A stretch of DNA of 64,000 nt from a virus, in IMG/VR virus record IMGVR_UViG_3300037235_000042, positions 34,272 through 98,271 of that record; one strand, given 5' to 3'. Of the stretch, positions 29,109 to 38,594 are shown in pieces. Positions within the stretch are counted from its first letter, which is position 1, and every line of letters begins with the position of its first letter. Below the pieces are notes generated by a model that saw nothing but the letters and a program-made list of their open reading frames with translations, was not told the origin of the DNA and ran no database searches. Both the position numbers and the translations under genes were made by a program.

Positions 29109-30080
29109 CTAGCTCGTGACTCCAGTCATGATGAATCCCAACCTCGGGGCCGTCACCACGATATCTCCGCCGTAGATATTCTGTCCCGCCATATCGATAG
29201 AGTTCGGCAGCTCCTTGAAGCCAGTAAAGCCGAACGCGAACAACGGATCCTCGGACACGTAAGCGTCGATATAGCTGGTGTTCATGCCGAAGATATCTCC
29301 GGACGGGCAGTATTGATCGACCACCACGGCCATTCCGTTAAACAGGAAGGATTTGAACCCGGCTCCCTGGAGGTCAGGGTCTTCCTTGAACGTGCGTTGC
29401 AGAGGAAGCATCTTGGCCCAAAAGGAGTTGTAGATCGTCTGGGTCGTGGCAATCAGGTCGGGCTGGTTAGGTCCGAAGGTCGCTTGACCGTAGGCAGTTT
29501 GCAGAGAATTCAAAGTGAACGGCCCGGCGAGATTGATGTAGTAGCCGTTGATGCCGTTCGACGCGCCCGTGCCCACGGCTGAACGGGTGACGCCGCCGTA
29601 GGACGCGTAGTTCGTGCCATCGTCGTAACCAGCGAGGATACCGTCTAGCGCGATCTGACTAGACACCGTGCCTTGACCGTCGCGGTAGAAGTCCTGGATC
29701 AGCGCCTGCGCGAGGGATTGTTCCCCGTTGACCATCTTGGGCTCGATGAAGTTCATGACCGCTTCCGGGCCACGGTTCAGAGGGAGGGCGGTGCGCTGGA
29801 TCGTTATATTGCTGTAATAATATTTGGGATTGAAGAACATCGCCGTCTGGGTCTGGACGTAGGAAATGTCGAACACGCCGCCCGGAGGAAACGGCCCGGC
29901 CTTCAACGGAGCGTACTGAAAGGGGACTTGGATCTGCAAGCCACCTTCAAAGGGCTTGGACATCTTGCCGCCCTTCCAGACTTTGACGAAGACTGGGCTA
30001 ACCTTAAAGTACGCGTCGACCATTTCATTGGACACGTAGTTGACAGTTACGGCGGAGATGTCCCCATAAGTGAGCGCCAT
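29109..30080 (-). CDS. major capsid protein (HK97 fold)
   Basis: GGLQIQVPFQY, LDGILAG, YGGVTRS, PDLIATTQTIY, GFKSFLFNGMAVVVDQYCP, NTSY motifs; follows scaffold. Confidence 0.85.
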   Translation of the reverse strand: MALTYGDISAVTVNYVSNEMVDAYFKVSPVFVKVWKGGKMSKPFEGGLQIQVPFQYAPLKAGPFPPGGVFDISYVQTQTAMFFNPKYYYSNITIQRTALPLNRGPEAVMNFIEPKMVNGEQSLAQALIQDFYRDGQGTVSSQIALDGILAGYDDGTNYASYGGVTRSAVGTGASNGINGYYINLAGPFTLNSLQTAYGQATFGPNQPDLIATTQTIYNSFWAKMLPLQRTFKEDPDLQGAGFKSFLFNGMAVVVDQYCPSGDIFGMNTSYIDAYVSEDPLFAFGFTGFKELPNSIDMAGQNIYGGDIVVTAPRLGFIMTGVTS

Positions 30081-30619
30081 CAGTTTATCCTCTTATCTCG
30101 ATCAACCTCTGACACGACTACCGCGTCAGACGGAAGATGCGGAGAATTTATTGCACGCAATTTATTTCGTAAATCCTCGTGTGCTTGAAGCTCTACAATC
30201 GAAATCTTTTTACCCTGCGATCCTTTAACCTTCAGCCGCATGAACGCCAGACCAATTTCAGCCTGTTCTCGTTTCATTATGAAATACGGCAAGCAATGTT
30301 CCAAGATCACGACCGCTCGCGTGTTGAACATCCGCCACGATTGGCAAACCTTGTTGCTCCGATAACTGGTAACTGCATTCTTGATCAGGTAAACAGCACC
30401 ACTAAAATTGTTCTGTAGCCACTCATGTAAACGAGGGTCAGTCCCAGAAACGATGACCTCCAGGTGGTATTGGAGATTGGTATAGCCCTTACGCTTACTA
30501 CGAGTGATTGAGATACAACCTTCTCCATCGATGAAGGCAGCTAAACGTGCCCAGTTTAGTTCAGACACTAAGGCGACCTTAGCTTCGAAATCTTCGCGAG
30601 ACGTTAGAGGTCTAGCCAT
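30080..30619 (-). mobile_element. free-standing single-motif LAGLIDADG homing endonuclease
   Basis: WARLAAFIDGEGCISI motif; LPYFIMKREQA downstream motif. Confidence 0.85.
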
Positions 30620-31392
30620 TAGGCCGCTGCCCCTTCTCTTGCCCGTTCAAGCTGCGCCAACCTCTCGGCAGCCTCCATAGCCCTAGTCTTTCCGTTTCCA
30701 TCTCCGGTCGTCTTCTTCGCGTCGGCGATGATCTGCTGGGCCGGTGACATGGACGCAGTGTGCGTCTGGGCCGGGACGGACTGGGAAGAAGTGAATTGTT
30801 TCTTGGCTTCTTCGACTTCTTTCTTGACCCGAGCTTCGATTCGCTTTTCCGATACCCAGTTGTTGTAGGCCGCGCTGATCGACGGCCAGTTCGCACCGGA
30901 TTTCTTCTGCTCGTTGACGTATTCGTCGAACTTAGTCAGGTCGAGGGACTCACCGAACTCCTTCTCGTGGGTGGACTCGATCCGGCTTAACTCATGGGAC
31001 GTTTTCAGCGCTTTCGAGAGGATCTGTCCTTCGTATTCAGGGAGCTTGGAAGCAGGGATGAAATCCTTCTTCAAGGCGTCGAGCTTGCTGTCGAGCAGAG
31101 TGGTTAGCTCGGCTAGGATAGACTTGTTGTCCGGAGTTCCGTTGTTCCGCGCAGCAGCGGCCTGACGGTCAGCTTCGGCTTTGTCAGCCATGGCCTTGCG
31201 GTCTTTTTCCGCCTGTTCGACACGCGCCCGTTCAGCTGCGTCGTCTTGGTCGTCATCGCCTTCTTCGCCCGTGTAGAATCGGTACAGCCGCTCGCCTTCT
31301 TGGAGACGTTTGGCGACGTCGGATTTGGCGGCGATCTTCGCAGCGGCGTCCTTGCCGACTAGAGCTTCGAGTTCTTCCAGGATTGTTGCCAT
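30619..31392 (-). CDS. capsid scaffolding protein
   Basis: charged coiled-coil protein between portal and MCP. Confidence 0.65.
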   Translation of the reverse strand: MATILEELEALVGKDAAAKIAAKSDVAKRLQEGERLYRFYTGEEGDDDQDDAAERARVEQAEKDRKAMADKAEADRQAAAARNNGTPDNKSILAELTTLLDSKLDALKKDFIPASKLPEYEGQILSKALKTSHELSRIESTHEKEFGESLDLTKFDEYVNEQKKSGANWPSISAAYNNWVSEKRIEARVKKEVEEAKKQFTSSQSVPAQTHTASMSPAQQIIADAKKTTGDGNGKTRAMEAAERLAQLERAREGAAA

Positions 31393-31441: not shown

Positions 31442-31816
31442 CTAAGCTGGAACCGGTTGTGTTTCCATTCCCCCACCGCCTGCGTCCGGAGCCGGTCCCT
31501 GACCTTCCATGGCAGTTGGCTGTGGAGCTTCCTTCGACGGACTACCAGCCCCGTCAGCCTTCACGAACTTATCGTTGTACTTCTGCAGGAGATCGGAGAA
31601 CTGTTGGATCATGTCTCCTTTTTCCTTGTCTTCCCCAGCGGCTTTACGCCATTTCTCAAACACCCGGAACAACGTCTTGACGATTTCAACTTCGTCCTCT
31701 CCGGCGGGCTTCTTCTCTCCCGGAGGCTTCGGGCCGCCACCGCCGCCCGGCGCACCCATCCCAGCCATGTTCGAGTAGAACGAAGGTGGCGCAGGCGGCT
31801 TGGTGGGCGGGGCCAT
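31442..31816 (-). CDS. Pro/Gly-rich head-module protein
   Basis: disordered termini with central helical hairpin. Confidence 0.55.
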   Translation of the reverse strand: MAPPTKPPAPPSFYSNMAGMGAPGGGGGPKPPGEKKPAGEDEVEIVKTLFRVFEKWRKAAGEDKEKGDMIQQFSDLLQKYNDKFVKADGAGSPSKEAPQPTAMEGQGPAPDAGGGGMETQPVPA

Positions 31817-32044: not shown

Positions 32045-32122
32045 CTGATAACTCCTGGTGAGAAGGTTGAGGAGAGGTTAAACTTGAAAGATCAACCTCT
32101 CCTGGAATCCGCTTAGCGGACG

Positions 32123-32173
32123 TTAGCGCTTGTGCTTACGTCCACCCTTTTTGCGACCCTTTTTACGTGCCAT
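32123..32173 (-). CDS. 16-aa basic micropeptide MARKKGRKKGGRKHKR
   Basis: read directly from sequence; AAAAGGAGAG SD upstream; below the ORF-track cut-off. Confidence 0.65.
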   Translation of the reverse strand: MARKKGRKKGGRKHKR

Positions 32174-32239
32174 CGGGTTCACTCTCCTTTTCTGAGATGT
32201 GAGGGTTTAGAGTTATGAATCCCGGCCTCCACCGTGATA

Positions 32240-32303
32240 ATTAAGGACCGGTGAAATCCTTAATCGAGAATGAGCGTATAACACGTCTATAGCCGAAGTA
32301 CAA
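32240..32303 (-). promoter_or_regulatory. capsid-operon promoter and leader hairpin
   Basis: TTGTAC-17-TATACG with extended TG; ATTAAGGA/TCCTTAAT stem at 32240-32264. Confidence 0.45.
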
Positions 32304-32325: not shown

Positions 32326-34122
32326 CTACTTGCCTTTCCCGTGTTGGCCTTTGCCGGTTAGAGCGGCGTTGGCAGCGGCTACGAGTAACTTCAACCGGGC
32401 TTCTTCGAGCAGTTCTTCCTTATTGCGTTCGAAGTTGAAGTTAGGCTCAATCAACCGGAACAAACCACGAGAACTCAAATCGCCCATCTTCCGTAGCTGG
32501 AATGCGGCTTGGATCTTGTCGTTCTTTTCAATGGCCAAGGTTGATCCGGGCTTGATCACGAAGCTGAACTTGCGGACAAACTCTTCTGGCTTCATTCCTG
32601 AAGGTCGGGCTTCGCCGTAGATCGGGCGATAGTCGGCGGAGGTGATACCTTTGCCGCCCAGGATTTCGATGCGATGACCGACGGAGTAGAACTGGAGCAT
32701 GTTGCAAATGCCCATGTAGCCAGAGTCACGGAGGAAGCTTTCCAGAGCCCGAGATTGAACCCGGACTGGGGTAGAACGGGAATTCTTGATGGTTTCGAGC
32801 GCGTCTCCGCCGGGGATTTGCTTCTTGCCTAGAGCTTGGGTAATGGCTGAGCCGGTTGAAGTAGCTTCAGCTTCCTTTGAGATGTCCTGAAGATAGGTTA
32901 ACACGAACGCTGGGAGTTCACGGCGAGCTTGGAACTCGGGAGCTTTCGGAGAGTTGTTGTTGTATTTAATCTTTGCGCCGTAGGCTCCAGGGTCGAGCGC
33001 TTCCCAATCGGCGGGCGGGAACGCGGCTTTGGGCGCGATCAATGTAGGCTCGATGATCGAGATGATCATGTCGAGGATTCCGCCGTTCACCCGGTTCAGG
33101 ATGTTGTTCATCTGCATGATGGGCTTCATGGCAGGCATGCCCGAGAGCTTCCACGGAACGCGGAACGGGCGGAAGGTAGAGAAGGGGAATTTCGCGTGCC
33201 AGTAAGGGTTCGGAGAGTCAGCGAGCACGCAACCCCCAGCCGTGACGATCACGCGACCCCGAGGGTAGAGTTTCTCGCCAGGCTGAACGAGGTAGGACCA
33301 AGAGAATTTATCGTTCGGCACCCAGACCGGCTCGCTAGCTTCATTGACCGCATCATCGCGGAGCCAGAACTCTTTCAACATCGTCATTTGATATTGAGCA
33401 GAGATTGACTCGGGGACATCGCCTAGGAGTTGCTTGAGGACCGTGCCCATCCGGTTCCAGGATTCCTTGGAGACGTGTTTAGGCTTCATGACCTCGGAGC
33501 CGGAGAGGTCGGAGTATTGAGGATCAGGTTTTACCCGCCGGGCAGTTTCACCGTAGGTCCGCAACAAGTGTTCCAAGGTAACGACGTGGTAGTAGATCAG
33601 GCATTCGGCTTGCTGGAGATCCGTAGCCGCGCCGATGATCGCGAGGTTCCACGGGGCGATGGGGATCATTTGAATATCGCCCATGCCGCCGTTCAGGGAA
33701 GAGTTCCACTGAAGCTTGGCGTAACCGGTGTGGAGAAGGCCATAGGTAACGATGTCTTGGAGTGTGGCTTCGAAGTCGGAACGGAGAGCCCAATGGACAG
33801 CGAGCTGATTGAGCATTTCCTCGAACTCGTTGAAGTCGCCTAGGGAGTTGAACAGTTTGACTTGGAAGTCTAGCGCGAGGTCGGTTAACAGGCCGACGTT
33901 CTCCCAGAAATGCTTGTGGACCTTGTTAACCACCGGACGGGAACGAGCCCGGCGCATTTTCTCCGTCCATTGCTTTCCTTCCAAGTAATCCATGAGCTTC
34001 ATGGTGTCGCGGATTTCTCTCTCGCGATCTTTGTCCTGCATGGATTGCTGGAACAGGGATTCGGTCCACTGGATGACGGATTCTTCGAATTCCAGAGGCG
34101 AAGTTGGGATAAGCGCGGGCAT
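32326..34122 (-). CDS. portal protein
   Basis: 598 aa; YLEGKQW, RPVVNKV, GYAKLQWN, KLYPRGRVI, NPYWHAKFPF; between terL and scaffold. Confidence 0.85.
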   Translation of the reverse strand: MPALIPTSPLEFEESVIQWTESLFQQSMQDKDREREIRDTMKLMDYLEGKQWTEKMRRARSRPVVNKVHKHFWENVGLLTDLALDFQVKLFNSLGDFNEFEEMLNQLAVHWALRSDFEATLQDIVTYGLLHTGYAKLQWNSSLNGGMGDIQMIPIAPWNLAIIGAATDLQQAECLIYYHVVTLEHLLRTYGETARRVKPDPQYSDLSGSEVMKPKHVSKESWNRMGTVLKQLLGDVPESISAQYQMTMLKEFWLRDDAVNEASEPVWVPNDKFSWSYLVQPGEKLYPRGRVIVTAGGCVLADSPNPYWHAKFPFSTFRPFRVPWKLSGMPAMKPIMQMNNILNRVNGGILDMIISIIEPTLIAPKAAFPPADWEALDPGAYGAKIKYNNNSPKAPEFQARRELPAFVLTYLQDISKEAEATSTGSAITQALGKKQIPGGDALETIKNSRSTPVRVQSRALESFLRDSGYMGICNMLQFYSVGHRIEILGGKGITSADYRPIYGEARPSGMKPEEFVRKFSFVIKPGSTLAIEKNDKIQAAFQLRKMGDLSSRGLFRLIEPNFNFERNKEELLEEARLKLLVAAANAALTGKGQHGKGK

Positions 34123-35346: not shown

Positions 35347-37551
35347 TCAATCTTCTTCTGAGATCGCTCCGCCGCCTTCGTGATGGTTCAAGTTAAGCAG
35401 ATCACGCATTGCCATCACGGCATCAGGCAAAATATGACGGTCCTTCATTCCGTAGTTAGCATACAATTCACGTTCAGCTCCAGCAGCGTCAGGGGAGTGT
35501 ATCGGCGACCAGCAAGTGTTGGCCTTCATGGCTTGGACCGCTATTATGCGCCAGGGCAATTTCACTTTATAACGGTCTTCCATCTTCTGAATCAGGTTCT
35601 TCCCCTCTTCTTCGGAAGGGACTTGTTCGATCTGTCGCATGTACTGATCGTAGATCGCATAGACGGAAGGAACCTTGGGCCTGTTATCCTCTGTCCTTCC
35701 GCTGGAACCTTCGGATAGTTGACCACCGAGCGCCAGACGTTCTCGAAGCGCGGTTAGCCCGATCCCCGCACTCATTACCATGTCATCGTTGTTGTCGATT
35801 CCTGCGACCTTGATCTGGTCCTCGTAACGTCCGAAATCGCGCATTTCTTCGATCAGATGTTTGTCACGAATGATAACGGTTTTATCGATCAGGGCTTGAT
35901 TCATCCGGTTGATCATCTCCGGACGGGTCTTCGAAGAGGTCATCCAGTGGAAGTAGAGAGTCAGGGCGTTGGTGACCTTGTCGAGATGCTTCCAGCGATA
36001 GAGGTTAGGGTAGTCTAGTAGCCATCGCAGATCGTTACCGGTTGTGATCCCGTATCCCGTGTACTCAACCGCGATCTCGGCCATGTGATACCAGACGCCA
36101 AGAGCGGCGAGGACTCGGGCGTAGTGGGAAGGGTCGATCAACCCATGCCATGAGGCGACCTGAACATCAGGCTCGCCCAGAGCGCCAATCCGCCAGACGC
36201 AGGCAGCCGAGAAGTCTCCGCCGTCGCCTGAGCTGCAATCCGCGCCGATGTAGTACTCGACCGCGTCGGATTCGTCCGGGAGTTCCCAGACCCAGAGACG
36301 GTCGAGGAATTCTGCTTTGTCTAGGAGGTCATGTTCTTCCGGCGGACGGAGTTTCGGCCCGAGGCTAGAGCTGAACGTCGGTTGAGTATCGCAACTAGTG
36401 AATTGAATCTCCCCAATTAAGATCGGTGGACGGCAGTTCTGCGATTCCTGTTCGTTCAGGCATTTCCGAGGAAACGCACAGAGGCCTGAGGAGACGAAGG
36501 CTTCGCCAGGGGTTATGGGGTAGGACTCGGCGTGAGTTTCGTCCGAGCCGGTAGCGTTGATCGTAGCTTGAATCTTCCGCCGACGCCATTTGAAGAAACT
36601 GGAAGGGATGGTGAAGTTGTCGAGTTCTTTCACCTTTAGACGGATGGTTCGTTCGTCATCGGTTAGAGTGAATTTCTCCCCGGCTTTCAAGGGAATGGAA
36701 TATTTCCGGACTTTGTAGACTGGAATGAAGATCGGCGTCCATTCAGATTGCCCACGTTCCGCTGCCATCCACATGTTGTAGAACAGGCCAGAACGCCCGA
36801 ACGCTGTGGACTCCATGATCGCCAGAAGGTCACGGGCGTTCATCGAAGGCTCGATGTCACCTGTCCAAACGTCGGCATCAGGCCAGCGGCTGACTTCACT
36901 CGCATGCAAAGTTCTCACGGTCCGACCGATTAGGACCCCGGATTTTCTTTGAGCATTGGATACAAGCAACGTAGAATCTAGTCCTGGATCAGTCTGCCGT
37001 TGTCTCTCATCCGTCCGGGTGAACATCATGTGGCGTTCTTGCTGGACCGAGCCCCGTTCTGGCTGCATCCACCAAGGGAGGTTGTCGTAGGCATAGGTTG
37101 AACGACGCCAGAGTTCAGCGGTGGTTTCTTCGTCCTGGGCCATAATTACCGAGAACACGCGAGGCTCGAAGATCGTCCGGTGGAAGACGATCCCGCCGAC
37201 GAAGGTGGTTCCGCCGGTTTGCCTAGGCTTGAGAACGATTCCCCGGAAGCAACCGTCCTGCGCCCAGCCTTTTTCCATGGCCTCGAAGATGATTTCTTGT
37301 TGATCGAGGAACGGATACATGGTTTGAACGTGGCCGTGCTCGTCACGGATCAGGTGGTAGTTTTCCAGATAGTAACGACGGGAGAATTGACAGAGTTCGA
37401 TTTGTTTATCAACCCAGTCGAGTTCAGATTGATCAAGAGAATTCCAAGCTTGTTGAAGGTCGAAACCAGTTTTAGTCGGGAACTGGAGAAGTTTCTCGTC
37501 TAGCAGGTCAATTGCGTCATTTAGGTTGTTGTCTCTACGAGGAACTCTCAT
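35347..37551 (-). CDS. terL: terminase large subunit
   Basis: Walker A LKPRQTGGTT, Walker B LHASEV, MESTAFG coupling motif, nuclease YYIGADCSSG..DFS and NNDDMVMS. Confidence 0.92.
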   Translation of the reverse strand: MRVPRRDNNLNDAIDLLDEKLLQFPTKTGFDLQQAWNSLDQSELDWVDKQIELCQFSRRYYLENYHLIRDEHGHVQTMYPFLDQQEIIFEAMEKGWAQDGCFRGIVLKPRQTGGTTFVGGIVFHRTIFEPRVFSVIMAQDEETTAELWRRSTYAYDNLPWWMQPERGSVQQERHMMFTRTDERQRQTDPGLDSTLLVSNAQRKSGVLIGRTVRTLHASEVSRWPDADVWTGDIEPSMNARDLLAIMESTAFGRSGLFYNMWMAAERGQSEWTPIFIPVYKVRKYSIPLKAGEKFTLTDDERTIRLKVKELDNFTIPSSFFKWRRRKIQATINATGSDETHAESYPITPGEAFVSSGLCAFPRKCLNEQESQNCRPPILIGEIQFTSCDTQPTFSSSLGPKLRPPEEHDLLDKAEFLDRLWVWELPDESDAVEYYIGADCSSGDGGDFSAACVWRIGALGEPDVQVASWHGLIDPSHYARVLAALGVWYHMAEIAVEYTGYGITTGNDLRWLLDYPNLYRWKHLDKVTNALTLYFHWMTSSKTRPEMINRMNQALIDKTVIIRDKHLIEEMRDFGRYEDQIKVAGIDNNDDMVMSAGIGLTALRERLALGGQLSEGSSGRTEDNRPKVPSVYAIYDQYMRQIEQVPSEEEGKNLIQKMEDRYKVKLPWRIIAVQAMKANTCWSPIHSPDAAGAERELYANYGMKDRHILPDAVMAMRDLLNLNHHEGGGAISEED

Positions 37552-38236: not shown

Positions 38237-38594
38237 CAGGTTTTAGACCGGCTCCATTTTGGGAGATTGTATCACGGTCGCTGAGCATGAACTTGGCGAG
38301 TTCGCCGAAGGCCACGCAGGCCTTCTCGATCCGGGAGGCGGAGAGGAGGATGGATTTCGAAGCCGATTCGAGGCCTTCACCGTTGAGCCGACTGATCATG
38401 GCCGTTAGGTCGGACTTGTGGAGTTTGAGGAACTCGACTAGATTGTCCTGCCGGGATTGCAGGTCGGACTGGATTTGGGTGATGGTTCGTCGAAGCTGGA
38501 GATTGGTCCAGATTAAGAGGCCAACGCCAGAGATCAAGACTGCGAGGAACAGTCCAGCGATCAGGGAGAGGACGACGATGCCGATAGTTCCCAA
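38142..38594 (-). CDS. single-TM coiled-coil protein (inner-membrane spanin-like topology)
   Basis: N-terminal 25-aa hydrophobic helix followed by heptad region. Confidence 0.5.
   Translation of the reverse strand: MGTIGIVVLSLIAGLFLAVLISGVGLLIWTNLQLRRTITQIQSDLQSRQDNLVEFLKLHKSDLTAMISRLNGEGLESASKSILLSASRIEKACVAFGELAKFMLSDRDTISQNGAGLKPDEYATPEPGEKFVDYNPTARGDLQASGEDDA

Follow-up and report, generated by a model that had tools for sequence, protein, structure and literature searches.

The stretch of DNA analysed here (the window, 64 kb) is the right-hand part of a 98,271-bp IMG/VR virus record that has 127-bp terminal repeats and a GC content of 52%, and its source is an uncultured tailed soil phage of ~98 kb, probably associated with Acidobacteriota. 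The late arm runs on the minus strand from the large terminase gene through the portal gene to the gene for the major capsid protein (MCP), with gene assignments in the head block made from PHROG matches, composition and synteny in relatives. Behind the portal gene lies a short open reading frame (sORF) of 16 codons, accompanied by the following genes and sites.

35347-37551, minus strand: large terminase gene of the late arm, separated from the portal gene by two small genes
32326-34122, minus strand: portal gene (phrog_156 at 1e-14 and a weak SU10/P22 portal Pfam match), the upstream neighbour of the sORF
32191-32182, minus strand: Shine-Dalgarno (SD) sequence AAAAGGAGAG, 8 nt ahead of the sORF ATG
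32173-32123, minus strand: 16-codon micro-gene (the sORF), 16 sense codons plus TAA, with ATG at 32173-32171 and TAA at 32125-32123
32044-31823, minus strand: g73 (73 aa), the downstream partner of the sORF, with its SD AGGAG at 32056-32052
31442-31816, minus strand: g124 (124 aa), a P/G-rich protein by composition, in the head block
30619-31392, minus strand: g257 (257 aa), by composition an acidic coiled-coil, scaffold-like protein
30080-30619, minus strand: HNH endonuclease gene (phrog_5046, 3e-15), between the scaffold-like and MCP genes
29109-30080, minus strand: MCP gene (PHROG match)

The gap between the portal gene and the sORF is 152 nt and the spacer between the sORF and g73 is 78 nt. 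The initial annotation had described the sORF as the first gene of the capsid block, and the gene order agrees: the sORF precedes g73, g124, the scaffold-like protein and the MCP. The portal has 223 relatives in the protein collection that was searched. The HNH endonuclease gene is present in some relatives only (L007, L008, L016-L018 and L054) and so looks like a mobile insertion.

From its ATG at 32173 to the end of its TAA at 32123 on the minus strand, the micro-gene encodes MARKKGRKKGGRKHKR, a 16-residue peptide with ten lysines or arginines, one histidine, three glycines and no acidic residue, for a net charge of +10. The sequence, start, stop and composition given in the initial annotation match the minus strand exactly, and the strong SD that it claimed is borne out by the pairing energy: the duplex with the anti-SD sequence amounts to -12.3 kcal/mol, the best among 29 minus-strand late-arm genes, the second-best of which reaches -9.1 kcal/mol and the MCP gene -5.8 kcal/mol. 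A scan of the whole 98-kb genome found the sORF to be the only ATG-plus-SD reading frame of such composition. Two ways in which the short frame might form part of a longer product were considered and rejected. A programmed -1 frameshift at the AAA-AAG runs would lead nowhere, since stops close the -1 and +1 frames a few codons on, and the slippery pattern lacks conservation, many relatives having AAG-AAA instead. Read-through into g73 is blocked in the window by a second in-frame stop, even though the two genes share a frame there, and the frame relation between the sORF and g73 differs among relatives. The sORF of locus L007 (7721-7783) holds a canonical slippery heptamer, A-AAA-AAG; because the family does not conserve the pattern and the shifted frames end immediately, this heptamer is probably incidental.

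Relatives of the locus were collected with a portal profile search, which returned 80 IMG/VR loci and 8 contigs from GTDB genomes; a single-protein portal scan of IMG/VR gave no match. The loci compared leave out the closest portal relatives, P0001 and P0002, which are 81-84% identical. A metagenome scan for close portal relatives returned one 2.1-kb fragment that ends inside the portal gene, and a nucleotide search with the cassette against 50,697 phage records gave no match. In most loci a mechanical scan detected a same-strand basic sORF downstream of the portal gene, and when the search was anchored on a g73 profile, a basic sORF with an ATG and SD was found directly upstream of the g73 homolog in 74 of the 74 loci that contain g73, against a background for the same criteria of 4 in 1760 random 420-nt windows on the opposite strand (~0.2%). 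The initial annotation had made its case depend on a conserved ORF and SD in relatives, and every one of the 74 assessable loci has both. The 14 loci without g73 are those in which the sequence ends near the portal gene or are the most divergent members, and three independent sORF matches come from contigs of GTDB metagenome-assembled genomes (MAGs). The gene is conserved across portals down to ~34% identity.

The pattern of change within the family is that of a coding sequence. Among 39 distinct nucleotide versions, nearly all with AAAGGAG 6-9 nt upstream of the ATG, the differences at codon positions 1, 2 and 3 number 89, 59 and 224, and in 32 close pairs 162 codon changes are synonymous and 94 non-synonymous. 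Loci L037 and L049 encode an identical 22-aa peptide despite 12 synonymous changes, and L010 and L016 likewise share one peptide despite 5. The sORF frame is uninterrupted throughout and the remaining frames carry stops, and lysine plus arginine make up on average 54% of its residues versus 17-18% in the other sense frames. The sORF is thus almost certainly a translated gene, and comparison of the sequences indicates that the reading frame and its SD are under purifying selection on amino-acid composition. That it might be a chance frame in a purine-rich spacer, with no product, gains something from its very short length, since low-complexity sequence may stay open by chance, and from two reverse-complement frames that are also mostly open. 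Against this stand the retention of ATG, SD spacing and stop in all 74 loci, across portals as distant as those just mentioned, the third-position bias, and the preservation of one peptide through 12 synonymous changes. Judged by conservation and substitution pattern, the chance reading is effectively refuted, and we regard it as scarcely credible.

The family comprises 41 distinct peptides, which range from 16 to 52 aa and are most often 22 aa long. In 39 sequences the commonest residues are K (233), R (207), G (153), H (68), A (45) and S (38), lysine plus arginine accounting for 57%, glycine for 20% and histidine for 9%, and P, L, N, Q, C, F, Y and W are absent from all of them. The ends are conserved, with a MAR start and a KR end, the C-termini being KR, KRxK and similar. 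In the loci whose portals have ~34% identity (L008, L066, L079 and L097), the peptides gain a short non-basic N-terminal piece. Locus L078 (6459-7058) has three tandem small basic proteins (42-81, 61 and 52 aa) that all end G-S-G-R-[SM], the last of which has a start like that of the window's peptide and lies right before the g73 homolog; the shared ending may be a docking tail. None of ten peptides from relatives (20-52 aa) turned up in a collection of 15 billion predicted proteins, in which the neighbouring g73 is represented by 185 clusters. Gene callers therefore miss these peptides, and the description as unannotated is borne out for the family. Nor did the peptide family match any Pfam, NCBIfam, PHROG or PDB profile, and a literature search returned no description of such genes in tailed phages, the paper on mycobacteriophage Patience offering nothing of use on small basic proteins in virions. 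For small basic ribosomal proteins such as bL34, bL36, bS22 and bTHX, no NCBIfam or Pfam match was obtained at E <= 10, a threshold at which the composition filters of HMMER may hide weak matches.

The 185 clusters of the g73 family, with proteins of 53-81 aa, are all labelled hypothetical and are lineage-specific; they share the motifs E-E-[ST]-F-G, F-G-H and V-K-T-G-Y-P, and g73 has no Pfam, NCBIfam, PHROG or PDB match. AlphaFold2 predicts the family, from 30 sequences, to be without secondary structure (pLDDT 60). A g73 homolog follows directly after the sORF in 74 loci. The distance to the portal gene is by comparison elastic: inserts of ~1.2 kb in L004 and L014 and of ~4 kb in L062-L064 separate the portal gene from the cassette, and despite these inserts the sORF stays 60-140 nt ahead of g73. 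Because the inserts part the portal gene from the sORF-g73 pair, the cassette goes with g73 rather than with the portal, and the gap behind the portal gene is, judging from these loci, a hot spot for extra genes.

The micro-gene is embedded in structured RNA. A 229-nt segment covering the cassette folds with z = -4.1 relative to shuffled sequences, and the following elements can be distinguished in and around it.

32303-32298 and 32280-32275, minus strand: candidate promoter hexamers TTGTAC and TATACG with a 17-nt spacer, unsupported
32263-32241, minus strand: leader hairpin 1, a 7-bp stem (TTAAGGA/TCCTTAA) with a 9-nt loop, present in both the MFE and the centroid folds
32238-32219, minus strand: leader hairpin 2, a stem (ATCACGG/CCGGGAT) with one mismatch and the loop UGGAGG (32231-32226)
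32143-32107, minus strand: stop-codon structure, in which GGACG (32143-32139) pairs with CGTCC (32122-32118), or alternatively a small hairpin at 32121-32107
32103-32070, minus strand: intercistronic hairpin of 14 pairs, -18.5 kcal/mol, with no U-tract behind it

The leader hairpin and the two downstream hairpins of the initial annotation are all present in the fold; leader hairpin 2 is an element beyond those that it listed. At the site of leader hairpin 1, relatives have a hairpin, often one with a GNRA loop flanked by GAGGC and GCCUGAC, as judged by eye. For leader hairpin 2, the loop U-G-N-A-G-G is invariant in 21 distinct aligned sequences, compensatory changes occur at four of the five inner pairs, and the covariation score is 0.69 versus 0.17 for shuffled alignments, with none of 500 shuffles reaching the observed value and a slid partner scoring at most 0.11. 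An A-rich tract and then ACCG(A/C)UCC follow downstream of this hairpin. Within its own genome the motif forms a hairpin only at the sORF locus. Several clades without the UGNAGG hairpin keep the sORF, and other leader motifs occur in some sub-clades. The possibility that GGTGNAGGCC is a repeated promoter or operator was discarded, as the one further copy on the minus strand (38372-38381) falls inside coding sequence and does not fold into a hairpin. Closer to the start codon, the SD has a possible pairing partner upstream, UCACAUCUC (32202-32194), which would sequester it in part, and an SD hairpin appears in the fold.

Around the 3' end of the sORF, the last codons pair with bases just past the stop in 18 of 32 distinct relatives (p <= 0.05 each, by shuffling), which places the stop codon in a hairpin loop, and the arms of this hairpin covary with the penultimate codon; the window's own pairing is not significant (p ~0.24). 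The larger hairpin beyond it is general. Every one of 34 distinct sORF-g73 spacers contains a stable hairpin (-16 to -36 kcal/mol, mean z -2.7), 15-50 nt before the g73 start and with a GNRA or UNCG tetraloop in ~20 of the 34. None of the 34 spacers has a run of T behind this hairpin, the next 8 nt mostly containing 0-2 T and at most 4, and a terminator scan of the minus strand found none. Searches of the leader and spacer RNA against Rfam 15 gave chance-level matches only, such as one to a miRNA model with an E of 0.38 and a score well short of the gathering cut-off. The promoter proposed in the initial annotation, TTGTAC-17-TATACG, is without statistical support: the hexamers exist, yet a consensus promoter scan called nothing there, and sigma-70-like scores upstream of the relatives' sORFs are no higher than in shuffled sequence (7.65 vs 7.85). 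In one clade an A/T-rich hexamer resembling a -10 element was seen by eye ~7 nt before leader hairpin 1.

Several groups of small basic phage proteins invite comparison. In the Microviridae phiX174 and alpha3, a hydrophobic/aromatic C-terminal anchor docks the J protein on the coat protein. In the present family, 39 sequences are free of F, W, Y, L and P and thus offer no such anchor, and no similarity to the J family was found in a Pfam scan of ten members at E <= 10 or in a PDB profile search. In the absence of both sequence similarity and a hydrophobic anchor, the peptide family is not a member of the J family. The resemblance lies elsewhere. Like J of phiX174, G4 and alpha3, the peptide is very small, highly basic, free of acidic residues and directly encoded, and just as J is made late from a gene adjoining the capsid gene, the sORF heads the capsid block. 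J and H are packaged basic peptides of the Microviridae, and J, a directly encoded basic peptide of the mature virion, offsets the charge of the genome (PMC7096446). J nevertheless belongs to ssDNA T=1 viruses without a packaging motor, whereas the sORF is carried by a 98-kb tailed phage with a terminase and a portal; tailed phages as a group are without arginine-rich arms and depend on packaging motors (PMC7096446). Among known systems, the peptide family would work most like J.

The internal proteins IPI, IPII and IPIII of phage T4 are also basic and are found inside the head at ~1000 copies, where their lysines contact DNA phosphates (PMC3012670). These are folded proteins of 8-20 kDa with an N-terminal capsid-targeting sequence that is trimmed by the prohead protease. 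A 16-mer that starts with MAR and continues with basic residues is too short to include a targeting sequence, and none of the ten head-module proteins was recognised as a prohead protease; on both counts the peptide is not an internal protein of the T4 type. A possible analogy for the pair formed by the sORF and g73 is offered by small, partly extended virion proteins of the podovirus T7 located at the portal barrel or in the tail channel, namely gp6.7, of which 12 copies surround the portal barrel, and gp7.3, of which 6 copies are present and whose lysines touch the DNA end (PMC11784390). The T7 proteins differ in having 88 and ~100 residues and defined helices, and in being encoded before the portal gene. 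As for the RNA, intercistronic stabilising hairpins set the differential expression of operons such as puf and malEFG. As in those operons, a stable hairpin free of a U-tract stands right after a short upstream cistron, from which we infer that the upstream mRNA may here too outlast the rest.

Taken with its surroundings, the peptide could serve as a bulk polycation in head assembly or DNA packaging, accompanying or conditioning the DNA and perhaps residing inside the capsid, a reading that we favour tentatively, at somewhat short of an even chance, because of the composition, the position in the module and the arrangement of SD and hairpins. A peptide of such composition would be expected to have hardly any activity other than binding polyanions; head assembly or DNA packaging is suggested by where its gene stands in the module; and the combination of the strongest SD, a structured leader and a 3' hairpin free of a U-tract resembles set-ups that overproduce one short cistron. 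The product would be an unstructured 16-residue polycation of K, R, G and H, made in bulk late in infection from a short mRNA segment that the hairpins would shield and that the strong SD would make highly translatable. It would bind nucleic acid electrostatically and act in head assembly or packaging as a counter-ion encoded by the phage, much as polyamines or the lysine-rich internal proteins of T4 do, and would probably enter or remain in the capsid alongside the DNA. In the head of a tailed phage, the lysines of the T4 internal proteins share the balancing of DNA charge with polyamines (PMC3012670). Against this reading speaks the general lack of arginine-rich arms in tailed phages and their dependence on packaging motors (PMC7096446). 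By our arithmetic, neutralising all 98 kb would take ~10^4 copies of the peptide, which leaves partial neutralisation as the most that can plausibly be expected.

The constant link to g73 and the intricate RNA folding, with a stop codon enclosed in a hairpin loop, would suit a regulatory or a low-copy structural role equally well. The peptide may be a structural or assembly partner of g73, present in a few copies in the portal, the core or the channel of the tail, where the two might hold the end of the DNA in place or make up for mismatched symmetries, in the manner of T7 gp6.7 and gp7.3. This possibility, which we consider unlikely, draws on the invariable co-occurrence and adjacency of the two genes, on the predicted lack of secondary structure in g73, as in proteins that acquire a fold only by binding a partner, on the T7 precedents (PMC11784390), and on the non-basic N-terminal extension or GSGR[SM] tail of distant clades, either of which might be a docking piece. 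An SD unmatched in the late arm, together with a stabilised mini-mRNA, points however to a number far above 6-12 copies per virion; the window's peptide has no non-basic segment for specific docking; and no sequence similarity to the T7 proteins was found in Pfam and NCBIfam scans. A different role would be regulation in cis, in which translation of the sORF remodels the stop-codon and intercistronic hairpins and thereby sets read-through, mRNA stability or the translation of g73, scaffold and MCP, the K and R codons sensing the supply of tRNA-Lys and tRNA-Arg or the speed of the ribosome; no phage gene for either tRNA was found in the window. The sORF is indeed at the head of the operon, in 18 of 32 relatives its stop codon is enclosed in the loop of a hairpin showing covariation with the last codons, a strong hairpin stands behind it at all loci, and the upstream anti-SD sequence can partly sequester its SD. 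We nevertheless judge a leader peptide quite unlikely. The terminator hairpin followed by a U-tract that marks trp/his-type attenuation is not found, the U-tract being missing from all 34 spacers, and the hairpin does not include the SD of g73. When antiterminators were sought, the pairing of the last codons past the stop was seen in 18 of 32 relatives, and no conserved alternative pairing rivals the large hairpin. Retention of glycine, histidine, the MAR start and the KR end, with twelve amino acids excluded, exceeds what a codon sensor needs, and length variation from 16 to 52 aa would shift any logic based on ribosome position. The translation-coupled attenuator of the initial annotation is thereby weakened, by the lack of a U-tract, the free SD of g73 and the selected composition; what speaks for it still is the stop-codon hairpin of many relatives.

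Another alternative to the bulk polycation is that the peptide is an RNA-binding autoregulator, or the cassette a dual-function RNA, such that the peptide or the ~230-nt RNA binds the UGNAGG hairpin or other RNA and controls late expression. An invariant loop on a covarying stem is typical of a site recognised by protein or RNA, the hairpin is unique to the sORF locus in the genome, the cassette folds with the z of -4.1 given above, and both arginine-rich-motif peptides and ribosomal-protein leaders provide analogues. In antiterminators of the lambda N type, a helix-forming Arg-rich motif binds a boxB-type hairpin next to boxA. Hairpins with GNRA or UNCG loops flank the sORF, but the peptide is lysine-rich, 20% glycine and without helix-forming residues, unlike the motifs of lambda N and P22 N; moreover, the sORF persists in several clades without the UGNAGG hairpin, and no Rfam family matched. 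We hold this explanation to be very unlikely.

Were the peptide to act as a bulk polycation, its gene would bear on the physics of the phage head. The balance of DNA charge in tailed phages is usually credited to metal ions and polyamines, with folded internal proteins contributing in T4, and to these a conserved polycation micro-gene of the head module would add a counter-ion that the phage itself encodes, with a synthetic 16-mer as a directly testable handle on packaging and ejection. Whatever its function, a late gene conserved throughout a large soil-phage lineage (at least 74 loci, with portal relatives in the hundreds) escapes standard annotation, and the leader UGNAGG hairpin is an undescribed conserved RNA motif that accompanies it. 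A broader conjecture, conceivable although we think it doubtful, is that many tailed phages encode oligocations of 12-50 K, R, G and H residues, invisible to gene callers and produced in bulk from a hairpin-protected mini-mRNA that heads the capsid operon, which would be co-packaged as a substitute for polyamines and would tune packaging force, condensation and ejection, the histidines adding a dependence on the pH of acidic soil. The present clade would then be one lineage of a widespread, hitherto undescribed virion component of tailed phages.

The association with Acidobacteriota comes from the GTDB contigs with a related portal (L092-L099), all eight of which were binned in MAGs of that phylum, namely of Acidiferrales, Acidobacteriaceae, Terriglobales, Terracidiphilus and Sulfotelmatobacter. 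One of these contigs, of 102.8 kb, is probably a whole phage genome binned with its host. By MCP, the nearest cultured relatives are the Tunturiibacter phages Tunturi 1 (PP887698) and Tunturi 2 (PP885685), at 26% identity for the MCP and 18% for the portal; both are acidobacterial podoviruses (PMC11924767). Their module has the same order as that of the window, with TerL, a small protein, portal, (HNH), small basic ORFs, a P/G-rich helical protein, a scaffold-like protein and MCP; Tunturi 3 was rejected as a relative, its head module being different. The slot that the sORF and g73 occupy in the window is filled in the Tunturi phages by a 22-codon, K/E-rich, SD-led sORF, unannotated in the GenBank record of Tunturi 1 (L082:5650-5718), and, just behind it, the annotated 43-aa basic protein gp5 (L082:5735-5866). 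Unlike the window's peptide, the 22-aa product has five glutamates, and with portals only 18% identical, homology of the Tunturi products to the peptide family is not established.

Two further basic sequences of the same genome deserve mention. Outside the window, at ~32944-33126 on the minus strand of G000:C1, lies a 60-codon SD-led ORF that is very basic and rich in K, R and A, and beyond it and the sORF the genome has no further SD-led basic small ORF of appreciable size. Immediately upstream of the cassette, the C-terminus of the portal (32326-32360, minus strand) is a Gly/Lys/His-rich tail, TGKGQHGKGK, which resembles the micro-peptide in composition, and the consensus of the portal profile likewise ends in TGKG.
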